Shown here: one piece after another, positions 4,976 through 58,018 of the stretch
Position numbering within the stretch: position 1 is the first letter of the stretch
Layout of the letters: every line of letters starts with the position of its first letter
Assembly: GCA_000990355.1 (NCBI GenBank)
Contig: LBSX01000004.1
Span: 1,757 to 65,756 of the forward strand
From: Candidatus Magasanikbacteria bacterium GW2011_GWC2_37_14
GTDB lineage: Bacteria; Patescibacteriota; Patescibacteriia; Magasanikbacterales; UBA922
Length of the DNA stretch: 64,000 nucleotides
Reading direction: 5' to 3'
The notes under the pieces: generated by a model
Told to the model about the DNA's origin: nothing
Databases searched by the model: none
What the model saw: the letters and a program-made list of their open reading frames with translations, nothing else
Program-made: the position numbers and the translations under genes

Positions 4976-7228
4976 ATGGCGTTAAATACCTCACTCGTAC
5001 AATTAAATACTTTTAGTAAGAGTTTGAGTGCCAAATTAAAAAAAATTGGACTTTTTTCAGTACAAAATTTACTATTTTATTTGCCTTTTCGTTATGAAGA
5101 CTATAGTAAAGTTTTAACAATTGCTAATTTAACCCCAGGAGAACAAGTAACCATTAAAGCGCAAATTAGTGCGATTGCGGTAAAACGTGGTTGGAAATAT
5201 AGTAAAATGTTTACTGAAGCCATTGCCGAAGATGAAACTGGAAAAATAAAATTAATGTGGTTTGGCCAACCCTTTATTGCCAAAGTTTTAAAAATGGGTG
5301 ATGTGGCTTATTTTTCGGGAATTGTGAAAGATGGTAAATTGGGTTTGAATATGGTGAACCCAGTTTATGAAAAAGATACCCCCCCTAGCCCCCCCTTATT
5401 AAGGGGGGGGAAACAGAACGACACCCTTGTTAAAGTGGGAAATCGGATACATACTGCTAGAATTGTGCCAATTTATCATACAACCGAAAAATTAACGCAA
5501 AAACAATTACGTTATTTAATTAGCCAAGTTATTGGTTTGGCAACAGAAATCAAAGAATGGCTGCCTGAAGAATTTTTGGAAAGTGCAGATTTAGTACCAT
5601 TAAGTGAAGCGATTCGGGGAATTCATTTTCCCGAAGATGAAACTGATTTAGTACAAGCGCAAAAACGTTTAAAGTTTGGGGAAATTTTTATTTTACAATT
5701 GCGAGCGGAAATGATTCGCCAGTCTTTAAAAAGAGCTAATGCGCCAATTATTAGTTTTCAAGAAAAAGCAGTAAAAGAATTTGTAGCTAAATTGCCATTT
5801 GAACTTACCGCACCACAAAAAGTAGCTAGTTGGGAAATATTAAAAGACTTAAACAAAAACGAACCAATGAATCGTTTGTTGGAAGGGGATGTGGGCAGTG
5901 GTAAAACTGTAGTAGCGGGTTTGGCACTTTACAATACAGTTTTAAATGGTTATCAGGGAGTGATTATGGCACCGACGGAGATTTTGGCAAGGCAACATTT
6001 TGAATCTTTAAAACAAATTTTGGGTGATAATGTTAGTTTGGCGTTATTAACACGTTCTCAATTTACAGTTTACAATTTACAATTTACAAAAAATTTCCAA
6101 TTTTCAAATGACAAATTAAGTAAACAAAAAATTGTTGAGTTAATCAAAAATGGGGAAATTGATGTGGTAGTTGGTACTCATTCATTGCTCTCAGATGATG
6201 TACAATTTAAACATTTGGGTTTGGCAGTGGTAGATGAACAACATCGTTTTGGTGTGGAACAACGTAAAATTTTGCGTGAAAAAGCTGGTGGTGGGCGACT
6301 TAACCCACATTTTTTATCAATGACCGCTACGCCAATTCCGCGTTCGTTCGCACTCCTGCTTTATGGTGATTTGGATTTATCAATTATTAATCAATTACCA
6401 GTTGGTCGCAAACCAATTAAAACCCGGGTAGTAGAACCTTATAATCGGCAGAAAGCTTATGAATTTATTAAAGAACAAGTAAAACTAGGCAGGCAAGTGT
6501 TTGTAATTTGTCCGCTAATTGAATCATCTGTCATCCCGACCGAGTCTCGCGACGAGTGGAGCCTGCCTGCCGGCGAGGCAGGGGATCCCTCGACTTCGCT
6601 TCGCTACGCTCGGGATGACAAAAGTGACGAGAAAAAAACAGTAATGAGTGAATATAAAAAACTTTCCGAAGAAATTTTTCCAGATTTAAAAGTTGCTTAT
6701 TTACATGGAAAATTGCCCGCCCGAGGCGGGTCCGCCTTGGGCGGAAAGCCATCAAAAGAATCCGTCATGGAAGCTTTTAGAAATGGGGAAACAAATATTT
6801 TGGTTTCTACTTCGGTAATTGAAGTAGGAGTAAATATTCCCAATGCGAGTGTAATGATGATTGAAGGAGCCGAAAGATTTGGTTTGGCACAATTACATCA
6901 GTTTCGCGGTCGGGTAGGCCGGGCCGAGCATCAATCATATTGTTTACTATTTTCTAATACAGAAAACGAGAAAGCCTTAGCACGTTTAGAATTTTTTCAA
7001 AATAATATTGATGGTTTTAAGGTAGCAGAATATGATTTGGAAACTAGGGGACCGGGTGAAGTGTATGGTACGGCGCAATCTGGTTTGGGTAATTTTAAAT
7101 TAGCGACTTTAAAAGATATTAAATTAATAAAACTAGCGCGGGATTTGGTAAGAGATATAGATTTTAACCAGTACCCGATTTTTAAAGAAAAAGTAAAAGA
7201 ATGGGAAAAAGGAGTGCATTTGGAGTAA
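4976..7228 (+). CDS. recG: ATP-dependent DNA helicase RecG (carrying in-frame palindromic-element insertions)
   Basis: Wedge domain, GDVGSGKTVVA, DEQHRFGV, helicase C motifs QLHQFRGRVGRA. Extra Pro/Gly-rich segments correspond to the repeat insertions. Confidence 0.9.
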   Translation: MALNTSLVQLNTFSKSLSAKLKKIGLFSVQNLLFYLPFRYEDYSKVLTIANLTPGEQVTIKAQISAIAVKRGWKYSKMFTEAIAEDETGKIKLMWFGQPFIAKVLKMGDVAYFSGIVKDGKLGLNMVNPVYEKDTPPSPPLLRGGKQNDTLVKVGNRIHTARIVPIYHTTEKLTQKQLRYLISQVIGLATEIKEWLPEEFLESADLVPLSEAIRGIHFPEDETDLVQAQKRLKFGEIFILQLRAEMIRQSLKRANAPIISFQEKAVKEFVAKLPFELTAPQKVASWEILKDLNKNEPMNRLLEGDVGSGKTVVAGLALYNTVLNGYQGVIMAPTEILARQHFESLKQILGDNVSLALLTRSQFTVYNLQFTKNFQFSNDKLSKQKIVELIKNGEIDVVVGTHSLLSDDVQFKHLGLAVVDEQHRFGVEQRKILREKAGGGRLNPHFLSMTATPIPRSFALLLYGDLDLSIINQLPVGRKPIKTRVVEPYNRQKAYEFIKEQVKLGRQVFVICPLIESSVIPTESRDEWSLPAGEAGDPSTSLRYARDDKSDEKKTVMSEYKKLSEEIFPDLKVAYLHGKLPARGGSALGGKPSKESVMEAFRNGETNILVSTSVIEVGVNIPNASVMMIEGAERFGLAQLHQFRGRVGRAEHQSYCLLFSNTENEKALARLEFFQNNIDGFKVAEYDLETRGPGEVYGTAQSGLGNFKLATLKDIKLIKLARDLVRDIDFNQYPIFKEKVKEWEKGVHLE

Positions 7229-7233
7229 ATGAT

Positions 7234-7360
7234 TTTCCCCCTTAACAAAGGGGGACCTGCCTACCGGCAGGCAGGTTAAGGGGGTTGTTGGCGAATATCC
7301 CCCCCGCCTGCCATGCCTGGCACTGGCGGGCAGGCCTAGCCCCCCTTTACCAAGGGGGGT
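7234..7360. repeat. array of C-run/loop/G-run mini-hairpins (family 2) plus a CCTGCCTNCCGGCAGGCAGG hairpin
   Basis: tcccccTTAACAAAGggggac is identical to the module inside ugd. ggggttgttggcgaatatccccc is the reverse complement of a module at 56467-56490. Confidence 0.7.
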
Positions 7361-7374
7361 AAATTGACAAGGTC

Positions 7375-7403
7375 TTGACAAAAGTCGTTATTTGTGCCAT
7401 AAT
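7375..7403 (+). promoter_or_regulatory. sigma-70-like promoter of rnpB
   Basis: TTGACA (7375-7380), 17-nt spacer, extended -10 TGcCATAAT (7395-7403). Confidence 0.55.
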
Positions 7404-7409
7404 ATTTAG

Positions 7410-7750
7410 GTGATTTTCAATTTAGGATCCAACCATAAAGTTGGTGTTGTCGCGAAAGTGACAGGATTGAAATCACTATCTTTCCACTGTGCTGGAGGAG
7501 AAACCCCATGAGGTGTAAGGAAGCGCGAGCCGCAGGTGGTGTCCCCGCGGGTCAAACTCCGGGGAAGAAGCCGAGGAGCAAGTTTTCCTATCGTAGCCTC
7601 CGCGTCCGCGTGGAGACTGTTGGGGTGGCCGACCTCAGTGAGATGTCGGAACACCGCCCGGCGTGCTGTACGACGGATGAAGACCACGTCCTTCTGCAAA
7701 TGGGGTTCAACCCCAGTGAGATGCCGGGTCGCAAAGATCCTTCGTAAAGC
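7410..7750 (+). ncRNA. rnpB: RNase P RNA, bacterial type A-like
   Basis: GC-rich (~57%) island with no credible ORF. GGAGGAgAAA + AACCCCAU (7494-7509) can pair with AUGGGGUU (7700-7707), as in P4. AAACUCC...GGAGCAAG (7554-7582). CAGUGAG (7636-7642) and GGAUGAAGAC (7675-7684) match the E. coli M1 P15-P18 region. P1-like AGGAUC/GAUCCU pairs the two ends. Boundaries are approximate. Confidence 0.65.
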
Positions 7751-7898
7751 CCTCCTTTGTCCGGCCAGTTCTTGGCCGAAGTTCTTTCTTACCTCCCCCC
7801 AAACGAGCTTGGTGGGGCTCTTCAGACCGCCAACTCGCTTCCTCTATAATTTCAGTTCGAGATTACTGGTGAAGCGAGCGGCCTGAAGTTTGTAAATT

Positions 7899-7931
7899 AA
7901 AAACATCCACCTCTTCGGCGGATGTTTTTTT
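7899..7931. terminator. bidirectional intrinsic terminator (rnpB transcript / minus-strand gene 7938-9398)
   Basis: Hairpin aaacatccacc-tcttc-ggcggatgttt followed by seven T's on the plus strand. Confidence 0.6.
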
Positions 7932-23467: not shown

Positions 23468-23530
23468 GTTATGTTCAGCATGACAATGAATAATTCATTT
23501 GCCTGTGGTACTGTGTGGCTAAGATGGTTT

Positions 23531-23615
23531 TCCTCCCCCTACGAGGGGGAGGCGAGGAGGGGGTTTGGCCAACCGCGAAACCCCATCCCACCCTCCCCTT
23601 GTAGGGGAGGGAAAC
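23531..23615. repeat. family 2 C-run/G-run mini-hairpin array
   Basis: cctcccccTACGAgggggagg ... ccctccccTTGTAggggaggg. Confidence 0.6.
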
Positions 23616-23833
23616 ACCCTCTCGTGCCATACAGTATTGCCGTGAATCTTTAATAGGTTTGCGGTTGGCTGTCCTTCACAAGACGGCCAGGGCACCCCGA
23701 TTTAATCGGGGAGCATAAAGTATAAAGGTCGATCCGTGGCAACACGGAACAGCATGCAAAATTTAAATGCACACTTATTTGGCCAGATTGTGGCGCAAGT
23801 CGCAACGCTGACGAATAAGTTTCTTAATTTATT

Positions 23834-55220: not shown

Positions 55221-56711
55221 ATGAAAATACTTTATATTGGTTCGGGGTTTGTGGGTGCTTGTAGTGCGGCGGTATCGGCCGACAGTGGCCACGAGACTTT
55301 GGTCTACGATATTGATCAAAGAAAAATTGATCTTTTGTCGTCTGGCGATCGTGATACCATTCAATCTTGCCTATACGAAGAAGGGCTAGGGGATTTGCTT
55401 ATTCGTAATCGCGAACGAATTAAATTTACTACCGATTATGCGCTTGTGGAAGAGTTTTTAAATACGGCCGAAGCAGTTTTTATGTGCTTGCCTACGCCAG
55501 AAATTGGTGAAACTGGTGAGAGTAATTTAAGTTATTATTTTTCTGCTGCCGAAAAATTGGCTGAGAGTCTTTTGAAACGCAATAAAAATAAGCAAACTCA
55601 ATACATCGTGATTATCAACAAGAGCACTGTGCCAATTGATATGATAAATAAAACTGCGGAAATTATGGATAAAAGCCAAGTAAAAAATTATGGTGTGGTT
55701 TCTAACCCAGAATTTTTGGTAGAAGGCAAAGCAGTGCAAGATTCACTTCACCCCGATCGCGTGGTAGTAGGTGCTTGGACCGAAAAAGATTTTGCGATTA
55801 TGCGTCAAGTTTATAATCGTTTTTATAATTCGGCAAATGTAAAATATTTGGAAGTAAATCCCAAAGAAGCGGCGGCCGGAAAATTATTGGCCAATTTTAC
55901 TTTGTTTAATAAATTGGCAATTTGTTTTGATGTAATTGGCCGTACTTGTGAAACTTTTAGCGATTTAAAATTTGAAAATTTACGGCAGATTTTAACTAGC
56001 GACCCTCGTATTGGCACTTGGGGTATGTATGATAGTTTGTATGCTGGTGGTAGTTGTTTTATCAAAGATGCGCGTTCATTGTCGCACCAATTACAAACTG
56101 CGGGGCAAAACGCGGTAATGGTCAATGAAACTTATTTGGCCAACAAGCGCCAATTGGAATTGTTTATGAGTCGGGCAGAGAAAGAAGTCCTTCGACCAGC
56201 TCAGGATAAATCTAATTTTTCTTGGACTGGTAAAAAAGTTGCCTTACTTGGTTTGGCTTTTAAACAAGCCACCAATGATATTCGTAATTCTCCGGCAATT
56301 GATATTGTACGGATTTTACAAGAAAAACAAGTAGGTGAGATTCGTTGTTTTGATCCAGCGGCAATGTTTTGGTTTAAAACAATATTTCCCGAAAATGAAC
56401 AGATGAAGTATTGTGAGAGTGAGGTAGATTGTCTTGGTTCGGTCTCCCCCTTAACAAAGGGGGACGAAGGGGGATATTCGCCAACAACCCCCCAACCCCC
56501 CTTTATTAAGGGGGGGAATAGTGACTGTATTGTTGACGTTGTCATCATCGCCACAGACTGGCCACAATTTAGAAATTTAACTACTAGTTTATTAAATTTA
56601 AAAAACAAACCACTTATAATGGACGGCCGGCGCATGCTCTCGGGAGATTACGAAAAATTAAAAGAAAATGGTTTTGTAGTTATTCCAGTTGGGGGACAGG
56701 TAGTGAAGTAA
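55221..56711 (+). CDS. ugd: UDP-glucose 6-dehydrogenase with in-frame mini-hairpin insertion
   Basis: MKILYIGSGFVGACSA (NAD binding), catalytic GGSCFIKD, C-terminal UDP-binding domain. Inserted peptide SPLTKGDEGGYSPTTPQPPFIKGGNS. Confidence 0.8.
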   Translation: MKILYIGSGFVGACSAAVSADSGHETLVYDIDQRKIDLLSSGDRDTIQSCLYEEGLGDLLIRNRERIKFTTDYALVEEFLNTAEAVFMCLPTPEIGETGESNLSYYFSAAEKLAESLLKRNKNKQTQYIVIINKSTVPIDMINKTAEIMDKSQVKNYGVVSNPEFLVEGKAVQDSLHPDRVVVGAWTEKDFAIMRQVYNRFYNSANVKYLEVNPKEAAAGKLLANFTLFNKLAICFDVIGRTCETFSDLKFENLRQILTSDPRIGTWGMYDSLYAGGSCFIKDARSLSHQLQTAGQNAVMVNETYLANKRQLELFMSRAEKEVLRPAQDKSNFSWTGKKVALLGLAFKQATNDIRNSPAIDIVRILQEKQVGEIRCFDPAAMFWFKTIFPENEQMKYCESEVDCLGSVSPLTKGDEGGYSPTTPQPPFIKGGNSDCIVDVVIIATDWPQFRNLTTSLLNLKNKPLIMDGRRMLSGDYEKLKENGFVVIPVGGQVVK

Positions 56712-56722
56712 AAAATTATTTT

Positions 56723-56760
56723 GTAGAGACGTCCCGAATGCGGGACGTCTCTATTTTATT
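56723..56760. terminator. intrinsic terminator after ugd
   Basis: agagacgtcccg-aat-gcgggacgtctct followed by a T-run. Confidence 0.6.
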
Positions 56761-56761
56761 A

Positions 56762-56790
56762 TTGACAAAAATATTTTTTAGTGTTTAAAT
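56762..56790 (+). promoter_or_regulatory. sigma-70-like promoter ahead of GC-rich ORF
   Basis: TTGACA (56762-56767), 17-nt spacer, TTAAAT. GAGGGA SD lies 6 nt before the ATG at 56822. Confidence 0.45.
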
Positions 56791-56821
56791 TAGTTTGCGT
56801 GAACCACGTCCCGAGGGACAA

Positions 56822-57139
56822 ATGGCCAAGGCGAAGTTGCCCTTCCTGTTGCGTTTGGACTTGGGGGAACCCATTCCTTTCTACCCCCAGAGTCCGGTGT
56901 GTACCGAGCCCAAGAGCAAGCGGCGCTACCTCTTGCTCTGCACGAGCTTGATGGTTGGGGTGCTCACCTTCATCGAGAACCCCGCCAAGATCGTGCACTC
57001 CGACGGCGGGCTCGCCAAGCTGATGTTGCCCAAGGGCGCCAAGCCCGGCGACAAGCTGATCCCTGTGCGCAGGAGCCACAAGTTCAAGTGCTACTGGGCC
57101 AGGATCGCTGCGCCCACCACCACCACCACCAAGCGCTAG
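56822..57139 (+). CDS. small (105 aa) protein of unknown function encoded in a compositionally foreign GC-rich island
   Basis: Strong GC3 codon periodicity (AAG, GCC, CCC, ATC, GAG) in this frame only. Ends in a Thr5 run. No recognisable family. Confidence 0.45.
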   Translation: MAKAKLPFLLRLDLGEPIPFYPQSPVCTEPKSKRRYLLLCTSLMVGVLTFIENPAKIVHSDGGLAKLMLPKGAKPGDKLIPVRRSHKFKCYWARIAAPTTTTTKR

Positions 57140-57361
57140 GTGCGCGCCATGCTCTTTTCTACTGGACCGCCCTGTCTTGTACGATTATTCAATTGTACAG
57201 CAGGCCAAGACCACATCCCCAGCCTGTTTAGTTTTTAAAAGATTAAAAATTGAGCAGGCCTGCCTGCCGGTAGGCAAGGAGAAATAGGGATGTGGTTTTT
57301 GTTTTAGTTAATTTTTTTGAAGCGATTATTTTTTTGTGATATAATATTGTCATTATTTTTT

Positions 57362-57514
57362 TCTGTCATGCTGAACTCGTTTCAGCATCTTCGCGTCATT
57401 CCCGTGTAGACGGGAATCTTACAAACAAAAAAAGATCTCCGCCTACGCGGAGATGACGCATAAAAAAGATTCTGAAACCTGCCTGCCGGTAGGCAAGGTA
57501 AATTCAGGATGACA
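57362..57514. mobile_element. MITE-like element, family 1 (copy H, nested inserts)
   Basis: TGTCATGCTGAACTCGTTTCAGCATC, then GTCATTCCCGTGTAGACGGGAATC hairpin, then AGATCTCCGCCTACGCGGAGATGACG hairpin, then GATTCTGAAACCTGCCTGCCGGTAGGCAAGG...TTCAGGATGACA. Confidence 0.7.
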
Positions 57515-57529
57515 ATGTAACAAAACAAT

Positions 57530-58018
57530 ATGTTTAATAAAAAAAATTTCTTGGTGACAATAATTATTATTGTGGCAGTATTGTTGGTAGGTGGCGGGGT
57601 AACGTGGTACAAAAATTGCCAAGAGTATGTAAAAAGAGGTTTGGCAAAAAACACTTTTCCGTACACAAAATATAATCAAGATGAGTTGAATAGTTTGTAT
57701 TCACAATACCCATTGGAAAATGTGGCTACTACTCAAACTCCCGAACAAACTTATCAAAAATTTAGAGAATATTTAAAAAATCAAGATATTGATGGGGCAT
57801 TGAGTTTGATTTTTGAACGTTATCGAGCAGAATATAAAAAAGCTTTTGAAAAAGCAAAAAATGAGGGCAAAGTTTTAGAATTGTATAAAGCCTTGCCTGA
57901 AACTTTACAAAAAGTTAGTTGTTATGACACGATTTGTACTTACAAAATTGGAAATAAAGATGTTGAAGTTGAATTTGTGAAAAATTTGCAAGGTGTTTGG
58001 TTGATTGAATCAATTTAA
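57530..58018 (+). CDS. hypothetical membrane-anchored protein
   Basis: N-terminal TM. ORF only. Confidence 0.3.
   Translation: MFNKKNFLVTIIIIVAVLLVGGGVTWYKNCQEYVKRGLAKNTFPYTKYNQDELNSLYSQYPLENVATTQTPEQTYQKFREYLKNQDIDGALSLIFERYRAEYKKAFEKAKNEGKVLELYKALPETLQKVSCYDTICTYKIGNKDVEVEFVKNLQGVWLIESI

Follow-up and report, generated by a model that had tools for sequence, protein, structure and literature searches.

Genomic islets (compositionally atypical segments that are read as recent transfers), the compact, structured mRNAs of type I toxins such as those of the hok/sok and symE/symR systems, and the orphan small proteins of the Candidate Phyla Radiation (CPR) that gene callers miss are the described systems closest to the locus analyzed here. 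Atypical G+C content and codon usage, in particular, are routinely taken as proof of recent transfer or misassembly. We have analyzed a stretch of 64,000 nucleotides (hereafter, the window) from Candidatus Magasanikbacteria bacterium GW2011_GWC2_37_14 (contig LBSX01000004.1, positions 1,757 to 65,756), in which the gap between the ugd gene and the next operon harbors a G+C-rich island encoding a protein of 105 residues. A first, sequence-only reading had attributed the composition of this island to recent horizontal acquisition or to an assembly chimera. The results presented here point to a self-contained gene that is also found, in the same genomic position, in a second species, and whose atypical signal stays through the split between the two.

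An uncalled small-protein gene shared by two species

The window presents an overall G+C content of 34.6% (mean of 0.346 and standard deviation of 0.060 in 300-nt windows), against which positions 56797-57230 stand out with 52-64%. Values of 0.585-0.625 in 200-nt windows over 56800-57199 confirm the sequence-only reading in its description of an island of roughly 60% G+C on a background of about 35%. The frame it proposed is confirmed as well: the open reading frame (ORF) at 56822-57139 translates into exactly the 105 residues it quoted, and the G+C content at first, second and third codon positions (GC1, GC2 and GC3) is 0.48, 0.46 and 0.915 including the stop codon, or 0.49, 0.47 and 0.91 without it. 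In sliding windows, this period-3 signal shows one phase with 0.85-0.97 G+C, setting in near the ATG and gone past the stop codon. The GC3 of the 44 other genes in the window is 0.247 ± 0.038, with a maximum of 0.339, which places the island ORF at z = 17.6. Similarly, an index akin to the codon adaptation index, scored against the window's own genes, yields 0.278 for the island ORF and 0.684 ± 0.038 for the window genes, in agreement with the earlier claim of a codon usage unlike that of every other gene in the window. Lysine is encoded by AAG in 12 out of 12 codons, in a genome that prefers AAA (86%), and phenylalanine by TTC in four out of four, against a genomic TTC share of 8%; TTG makes up seven of the 14 leucine codons and AGG is also freely used. 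The codons of the island ORF are almost exclusively those ending in G or C, the rarest in the host.

A second copy of the island was identified in contig Ga0172379_10004076 (L019) of JGI sample 3300014208, which averages about 35% G+C. Its gene order matches that of the window, with ugd followed by a 767-bp gap, a homolog of the 162-residue protein gene that lies downstream of the island and a lamin tail domain (LTD) protein, and the respective amino-acid identities in global alignments are 88% (ugd), 52% (162-residue protein) and 67% (LTD protein). The gap carries a matching promoter, 5' untranslated region (UTR), Shine-Dalgarno (SD) sequence, ATG position, TAG stop codon and 3'UTR. The orthologous ORF (L019:4367-4678, 103 codons) is 45% identical to that of the window in amino acids and 59% in nucleotides, and displays the same bias: 0.60, 0.37 and 0.69 G+C by codon position (55% overall), AAG in four out of four lysine codons, TTC in four out of five phenylalanine codons and a codon-adaptation score of about 0.34. 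The presence of the island in sister genomes, a point raised by the sequence-only reading, is hence answered in the affirmative, the island lying in L019 between ugd and the 162-residue protein gene. Synonymous divergence (dS), estimated with the Nei-Gojobori method (NG86), is 0.67 for the island ORF and 0.70-1.06 for its neighbors. Since the dS of the island equals that of its neighbors, the two copies have been diverging for as long as the genomes themselves and, judging from this comparison, the origin of the island unit goes back at least to the split from the L019 species.

These observations do not sustain the recent horizontal acquisition that had been deduced from composition, for the L019 ortholog is syntenic, the flanking proteins are 52-88% identical and dS is like that of the neighbors; nor was any donor homolog, mobility gene, terminal repeat or target duplication found. 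The alternative of a chimeric assembly fares no better. A Logan contig (L001, 1016 bp, run SRR3309152, two samples) reproduces window positions 56486-57501 without a mismatch, spanning both junctions, and across 8.5 kb surrounding the island the window is also fully matched by an ENA MEGAHIT contig (L017, 72 kb). To this must be added the homologous island of the other species. The gene has nonetheless been overlooked in public annotation: the ENA and JGI gene tables call no gene in the 818-bp gap of the window, the L019 ortholog is likewise uncalled in its own gene table, and the sole database source of the 105-residue product is a Logan call on a short contig, with no NCBI source listed. Beyond these two species, the more distant relatives of the 162-residue protein gene (loci L020-L031 and L033) are preceded by other genes, with no island, at a site that is not comparable; a scan of JGI metagenomes with a 21-mer from the conserved 3'UTR matched only the L019 contig, and the ugd matches in a scan of genome collections were 23-27% identical, mainly from Planctomycetota metagenome-assembled genomes.

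Several lines of evidence indicate that the ORF is coding. The frame at 56822-57139 is the only one open in both species, with conserved start and stop codons, and all indels between the two ORFs are in frame. A 106-residue antisense ORF and a 110-residue ORF in the +2 frame of the island were considered and rejected, as both are broken in L019. Identity between the two copies is 0.57, 0.69 and 0.525 at first, second and third codon positions, and the BLOSUM62 sum reaches 233 in the claimed frame and 53-157 in the other five. The nonsynonymous divergence (dN) of 0.56 yields a dN/dS ratio (ω) of 0.84, compared with 0.13 for ugd, 0.36 for the 162-residue protein gene and 0.25 for the LTD protein gene, bearing in mind that NG86 is biased upward in ω under strong codon bias. 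Taken together, we are highly confident that this is a real protein-coding gene, orthologous and syntenic in a second species, with rare codons in both copies and with conserved frame, UTRs and RNA structure.

The two proteins have the residue clusters RLD[LI]GE..PF, RYLLLC.S.M.GV..FIE[ND]P.K and A.LM.P..A.PG..L in common, as well as two cysteines. A membrane protein was rejected, with maximum Kyte-Doolittle values (19-residue window) of 1.56 and 1.31, below threshold, and with a lysine inside the hydrophobic stretch of the L019 protein. Net charge is not conserved, the isoelectric point being 10.2 in the window and 6.1 in L019. The product can be described as a lineage-restricted, fast-evolving small protein that looks soluble and, in a low-confidence fold prediction, rich in beta structure.

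The sequence-only reading could not place this product in any family, and broader searches of Pfam, NCBIfam, PDB, PHROGs, PADLOC and protein clusters lead to the same outcome. Neither the 105-residue product nor the two-sequence profile matched Pfam, PHROGs, PADLOC, NCBIfam or PDB; a search of 5.8 billion clusters returned only the query, with the single sequence and with the two-ortholog profile alike; tblastn against phages and plasmids gave no match, and neither did viral contigs by peptide or DNA pattern. Overall, no homolog was found among some 15 billion proteins. The toxin, immunity or phage-derived origin put forward earlier hence found no confirmation in PHROGs, PADLOC, phages or plasmids. 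At the RNA level, Rfam gave no match to the island when the whole window was searched at the gathering threshold, and none inside 56797-57306 when 56000-58000 was searched at E ≤ 10, and ARAGORN detected no tRNA or tmRNA gene in the window. We found no report of this phenomenon or gene in the literature. Two specific candidates were also rejected: a diversity-generating retroelement target or retron, because there is no second island copy in the window and no reverse-transcriptase gene nearby, and the precursor of a ribosomally synthesized and post-translationally modified peptide, as no modifying enzymes occur among the neighboring genes.

In a phmmer search of 1.84 billion representatives, the query was accompanied only by a short repeat motif in a protein of 283 residues (P0002; E = 2.5e-4, summed over seven repeats). 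Residues 60-83 of both orthologs align to single copies, of about 20 residues, of the pattern DG-x4-[ILV]-x-VP-x-GA-x-PGD-x-L; the likeness amounts to one short motif, with no domain-level homology and no function indicated. P0002 itself is rich in alanine and proline and contains at least seven tandem copies, of about 30 residues, of DG-x4-[ILV]-T-VP-E-GA-R-PGD-x-L-x-[IV]-P. Its Pfam matches are all sub-threshold (24 vs. 26.6 bits for a DnaJ_C beta-hairpin), and it may represent an undescribed repeat family.

Transcription unit and conserved RNA structure

All the elements described in this section lie on the forward strand. To the left, the unit is bounded by the intrinsic terminator of ugd (56723-56754), which lies outside it and consists of a 14-bp stem followed by a T run; the conservation of this terminator in L019 is only 72%, and a 34-nt indel separates the two copies. 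A sigma-70-type promoter follows at 56762-56791, with TTGACA at 56762-56767, a 17/18-nt spacer and TTAAAT/TAAATT ending the element (56785-56791), matching 10 of 12 consensus positions. It is also present at L019:4307-4336, and the segment 56755-56796 is 95% identical between the species. The predicted 5'UTR, with its start placed from the position of the -10 element, spans about 25 nt (56797-56821), is 64% G+C and 92% identical to L019, and contains the SD sequence GAGGGA (56813-56818) 3 nt upstream of the ATG. This SD lies inside a small hairpin with a 4-bp GUCC/GGAC stem (56808-56819) that appears in the predicted folds of both species as well as in their consensus. The own promoter, the SD and the ugd terminator pointed out by the sequence-only reading are therefore all found in their expected places.

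Within the 5' part of the ORF, the consensus fold contains a conserved mRNA hairpin, GGACUUGGGGG...CCCCCAGAGUCC (56857-56895, alignment columns 61-99). The ORF is followed by a conserved 3'UTR block (57140-57206) of 52% G+C that includes the hairpin HP1 (57171-57204) and shares 90% of its positions with L019, two stretches of 26 and 33 nt being identical throughout. A 32-codon ORF at 57140-57238 was rejected as coding because a stop codon interrupts it in L019, and hence the 3'UTR block is non-coding. The unit closes with a predicted compound terminator (57207-57304, inverted repeat I9), in which an outer stem (57207-57219/57287-57299) encloses an inner hairpin, HP2 (57222-57259), and is followed by a TTTTTGTTTT run. 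The feature previously delimited at 56762-57235 is real, but its end is not at 57235, as the transcription unit reaches the terminator at 57207-57304. The terminator loop holds a 21-nt repeat hairpin, CCTGCCTGCCGGTAGGCAAGG (57259-57279), with no counterpart there in L019 and which appears as a genome-specific addition; the outer stem is intact in spite of it (window 57240-57285 vs. L019:4760-4800). To the right, the unit is bounded by the promoter of the downstream operon (57317-57345, TTGAAG-17-TATAAT with an upstream TG, 10 of 12 positions), which precedes the genes for the 162-residue and a 1237-residue LTD protein and is kept at L019:4837-4865 in a segment that is 87% identical.

The repeated elements reported to flank the island downstream are present, with copies at 57259-57279 and 57478-57498 and a member of another family at 57362-57390. 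The island core has no second copy within the window and repeats occur only in the downstream elements 57259-57279 and 57362-57511, a pattern that is not that of a miniature inverted-repeat transposable element.

Conservation along the unit is markedly uneven. Identity to L019 is 0.95 in the promoter and 0.92 in the 5'UTR, falls to 0.71 in codons 1-30 of the ORF and 0.58 in its remainder, and rises again to 0.90 and 0.84 in two segments of the 3'UTR, 0.88 in the 3' arm of the terminator and 0.87 in the next promoter. By comparison, the 3' end of the ugd coding region is 0.81 identical and the four-fold sites of the neighboring genes are about 50% identical. The G+C content is 0.64 in the 5'UTR, 0.62 in the ORF and 0.52 in the 3'UTR, against 0.12 in the promoter.

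The predicted fold of the 3'UTR consists of a stem that includes the stop codon, HP1 and the compound terminator, and the folds of the compound terminator have z-scores of -5.8 in the window and -4.7 in L019. Pairing in HP1 is kept through one compensatory change from A-U to G-C and three one-sided changes, that of HP2 through four one-sided pair changes (on a reading of the two folds), and that of the hairpin at 56857-56895 through the flip of a G-C pair into C-G and the replacement of a G-C pair by U-G. When the RNAalifold energy of the alignment was compared with that of column shuffles preserving the conservation pattern, the consensus z-score was -2.95 for the 5'UTR plus the first 75 ORF columns, -3.24 for the 5' half of the ORF, -0.89 for its 3' half, -4.66 for the 3'UTR and -5.79 for the whole transcript. 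As controls, 22 windows of 165 columns from ugd, the 162-residue protein gene and the LTD protein gene gave -0.03 ± 0.8, with the lowest value (-2.12) in a window containing a palindromic insertion. Single-sequence z-scores were -6.2 (window) and -4.9 (L019) for the transcripts and -2.7 for each ORF alone. In the minimum free energy (MFE) fold of the window transcript, a helix between the 5' segment AACCACGUCCC and the 3' arm of the terminator, GGGAUGUGGUU, closes the molecule, and a fold-back of the transcript between its 5' and 3' ends is accordingly possible as a structural model.

Proposed maintenance of the composition and rival explanations

The differences between the two copies at third codon positions speak to the history of the bias. 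There are 48 such differences, 23 of which are transversions between G and C; another 23 have G/C in the window and A/T in L019, a single one has the opposite arrangement and one is a transversion between A and T. A further 47 third positions carry an identical G/C base in both copies. The resulting GC3 of 0.915 (window) and 0.69 (L019) contrasts with 0.18-0.34 for the neighbors in both genomes. When a two-state decay model (G/C vs. A/T) is fitted to the three neighboring genes (406 four-fold sites), equilibrium is reached at 0.34 G+C, with λT = 1.33, such that an ancestral GC3 of 1.0 would have decayed by now to about 0.68 in each lineage. The GC3 of the window copy exceeds this passive-decay expectation by about 5 standard deviations (105 sites). 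Given that the G+C enrichment is also present in the UTRs, the property belongs to the RNA and shows in the ORF wherever positions can vary freely.

On these grounds, we favor, with modest confidence, an explanation in which the G+C richness of the transcript is maintained as a whole, in the 5'UTR, at synonymous sites and in the 3'UTR alike, and is not what a recent transfer has left behind. The island would be a self-contained unit, running from its promoter and a short, SD-bearing 5'UTR through the ORF of 105 codons to a structured 3'UTR and compound terminator, and would constitute a vertically inherited, lineage-restricted small-protein gene carried on a G/C-rich, heavily structured mRNA. 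More tentatively, we propose that selection at the RNA level keeps this mRNA G/C-rich, heavily base-paired and probably long-lived, that the folded 5' region, the SD hairpin and the host-rare codons together hold translation low or conditional, and that the amino-acid sequence is only loosely constrained. What we infer within this proposal is where the transcript begins and ends, in which direction selection acts, how expression is affected and what the protein does. The stronger statement that an alien GC3 (0.7-0.9 in a genome with GC3 of 0.25) is a selected, heritable property of the mRNA, kept through speciation in a structured, long-lived or dual-function RNA that encodes a fast-evolving protein, is a possibility to be taken seriously, albeit one to which we give somewhat less than even credit.

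Several points weigh against this explanation. Passive decay from about 1.0 would account for the GC3 of 0.69 in L019, which leaves the window copy as the only one with demonstrated maintenance, and this copy could itself reflect a later allelic replacement. With two family members, the covariation and selection tests are low-powered, and the consensus structure is predicted from the same two sequences on which it is tested. Conserved structure is lacking (z = -0.89) in the 3' half of the ORF, although GC3 is highest there. The pairing partner of the 5' end also differs between species, as the MFE fold of L019 uses the 3'UTR block at 57172-57179 (UGGACCGC), and the consensus fold, like that of L019, pairs the 5' end with UGGACCGC, a weaker, 6-bp partner. 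Lastly, an ω of 0.84 is near neutral and would denote a weak constraint on the protein, which is a concern in spite of the inflation of NG86, and the beta-rich single-sequence AlphaFold model, with a predicted local distance difference test score (pLDDT) of 45, is unreliable.

The same observations give some room to transfer from an unsampled G+C-rich pool, either into the common ancestor with partial adaptation thereafter or by repeated allele swaps via the conserved flanks, in which latter case the window allele would have been swapped in recently and the L019 allele earlier. We consider such a transfer unlikely, if with an appreciable chance of being correct. It would accommodate the extreme compositional contrast of the island and a window copy far more GC3-rich than an L019 copy at its neutral-decay value; the flanks, 84-95% identical, could act as recombination arms; synonymous turnover between G and C is the pattern that accumulates within a GC-rich lineage; and the locus is a surface-glycan cluster, a class of genes that commonly undergoes exchange. 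However, no homolog of any composition is found in the 1.84 billion representatives, the 5.8 billion clusters, phages, plasmids or viral contigs, and the island edges present no integrase, tRNA, terminal repeat or target duplication, but only short, AT-rich chance repeats. Moreover, the GC1 and GC2 of 0.49 and 0.47, the amino-acid make-up and the free use of TTG and AGG are unlike those of an organism with GC3 of 0.9, and conservation is far higher in the GC-rich UTRs than in the ORF, contrary to what a neutral import would show. A local process has also been contemplated, in which GC-biased gene conversion at a recombination hot spot, combined with diversifying selection on the protein and with flanks acting as anchors, would produce the island with no selection on the RNA. 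A high ω (0.84), a high GC3 and conserved flanks do co-occur here, and GC3 enrichment is reportedly tied to recombination in bacteria (Lassalle et al. 2015). Such conversion would nevertheless have to be confined to some 450 bp with sharp edges, between a promoter of 12% G+C and an AT-rich next promoter, and the RNA-structure signal, seen in the 3'UTR and the 5' half of the ORF, is not one that it would predict. To our knowledge, a GC3 shift from 0.25 to 0.9 is also far above the effects reported for GC-biased conversion in bacteria, and we regard this explanation as quite improbable.

RNA structure is, on the other hand, what a type I toxin mRNA in the style of hok/sok or symE/symR would lead one to expect, folded back and silent until processed. 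The highly structured GC-rich mRNA, the SD in a hairpin, the closure of the window transcript by the AACCACGUCCC/GGGAUGUGGUU pairing, the stand-alone unit with a strong promoter and the rare codons, which suit a scarce product, all go in this direction. Yet a scan for consensus promoters, which a non-canonical one would escape, revealed no conserved antisense promoter over or facing the transcript, and the spacing of the sites on the minus strand (57369-57325) is not preserved in L019. The products, of 105 and 103 residues, have no convincing membrane helix, no conserved charge and no PADLOC or Pfam toxin match, and the fold-back partner differs in L019. A toxin of this type is thus doubtful, with a small chance of being the right answer. 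The structure might also belong to a non-coding RNA whose open frame is incidental to its G+C richness, since an island rich in G+C within an AT-rich genome is usually an RNA gene, and strong fold z-scores, conserved hairpins and an ω near 1 are consistent with it. But the G+C content of 0.49, 0.47 and 0.91 by position is a codon signature, accompanied by the AAG and TTC bias; frame, start and stop are conserved where other frames break, the second position is the best conserved and the amino-acid score is highest in this frame, and no Rfam match appears even at E ≤ 10. All this renders a non-coding RNA very improbable. As for an assembly chimera or a contaminant insertion, the sharp compositional edges and the nearby repeats, which could mislead an assembler, are outweighed by the identity of both junctions in the Logan (two samples) and ENA MEGAHIT contigs and by the occurrence of the island in the same gap of another species, from a different JGI sample, and artifact can be discounted almost entirely.

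Neighboring elements and comparison with described systems

In this CPR genome of groundwater origin, the genes upstream of the island code for a cell-wall hydrolase and Ugd, and those downstream comprise the operon of the 162-residue protein (locus tag US42_C0004) and the 1237-residue LTD protein, followed by a gene of the NAD-dependent sugar epimerase/dehydratase family. The upstream region of L019 contains polysaccharide-synthesis genes. This cell-envelope and glycan neighborhood hints at an envelope-linked role for the product.

A second stand-alone unit with up to 60% G+C lies at 7375-7930 on the forward strand, between recG and a gene with an SLT domain. It presents a TTGACA-17-CATAAT promoter (7375-7403), a GGAGGAG SD sequence and a terminator hairpin at about 7900-7929. 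Its ORF (7508-7747, 79 codons), called only in a Logan contig, has 0.63, 0.53 and 0.67 G+C by codon position, with weak periodicity. The transcript has a fold z-score of -4.25 and no Rfam or Pfam match, and it may be either a second structured, G/C-rich small-gene transcript or a new non-coding RNA. A further intergenic region of about 54% G+C (23500-23760) contains a long palindrome, CCTCCCCCTACGAGGGGGAGG ... CCCTCCCCTTGTAGGGGAGGG, and another segment that looks structured; only chance-level microRNA matches were obtained for it in Rfam.

Repeats are also frequent around these loci. A palindromic repeat, CCCCCTTAACAAAGGGGGAC ... CCCCCTTTATTAAGGGGGGG, lies inside ugd (56443-56517), where the frame stays open and reads ...PLTKGDEGGYSPTTPQPPFIKGG..., and is missing from the L019 ortholog; related copies occur inside the recG ORF (5388-5407) and in an intergenic position (7237-7256). 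The arrangement recalls the Rickettsia palindromic elements, which insert in frame into genes. The intergenic hairpin family TGTCATGCTGAAYTCGTTTCAGCATC is represented at 57362-57390 and at about ten other sites (e.g., 13094, 18663, 22290, 22326, 23442, 27576, 31232, 32329 and 62748), and the CCTGCCTGCCGGTAGGCAAGG family at 7255-7275, 57259-57279 and 57478-57498. One JGI contig with the same 162-residue protein gene starts 253 bp upstream of that gene, inside the repeat region.

The island gene represents a new orphan family with an unusual, apparently maintained compositional state. If selection on the RNA does maintain this composition, the island would provide a natural case of mRNA G+C content, structure and rare codons controlling stability and translation in ultra-small CPR cells. 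Genes of this kind would then be systematically invisible to callers trained on composition and misread as recent transfers, and the fact that protein databases hold essentially none of the island family denotes a blind spot. With a family of two members, the practical value of the finding is limited for now.

Compared with genomic islets, the island is likewise a sharp outlier in G+C content and codon usage, made up of a single small gene in a surface-polysaccharide neighborhood. It differs from them in being syntenic in a sister species, with a neighbor-like dS and a GC3-rich ORF in both, in that neither donor, mobility genes nor insertion scars were found, and in the strong constraint on its non-coding parts. 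With the mRNAs of type I toxins it shares a stand-alone, compact, structured and presumably stable transcript with a sequestered ribosome-binding site and a small product. A closing helix between its 5' and 3' ends is possible, but this fold-back is not predicted consistently in L019, no cis-antisense RNA gene was detected, and the product has 103-105 residues, no membrane helix and no match to toxin families. The orphan small proteins overlooked by gene callers in CPR bacteria are similar in their confinement to a narrow clade and in occupying, uncalled, what looks like an intergenic gap. What sets the island gene apart from them is a codon usage opposite to that of its genome, which is the likely reason for its having been missed, together with its conserved, structured UTRs.

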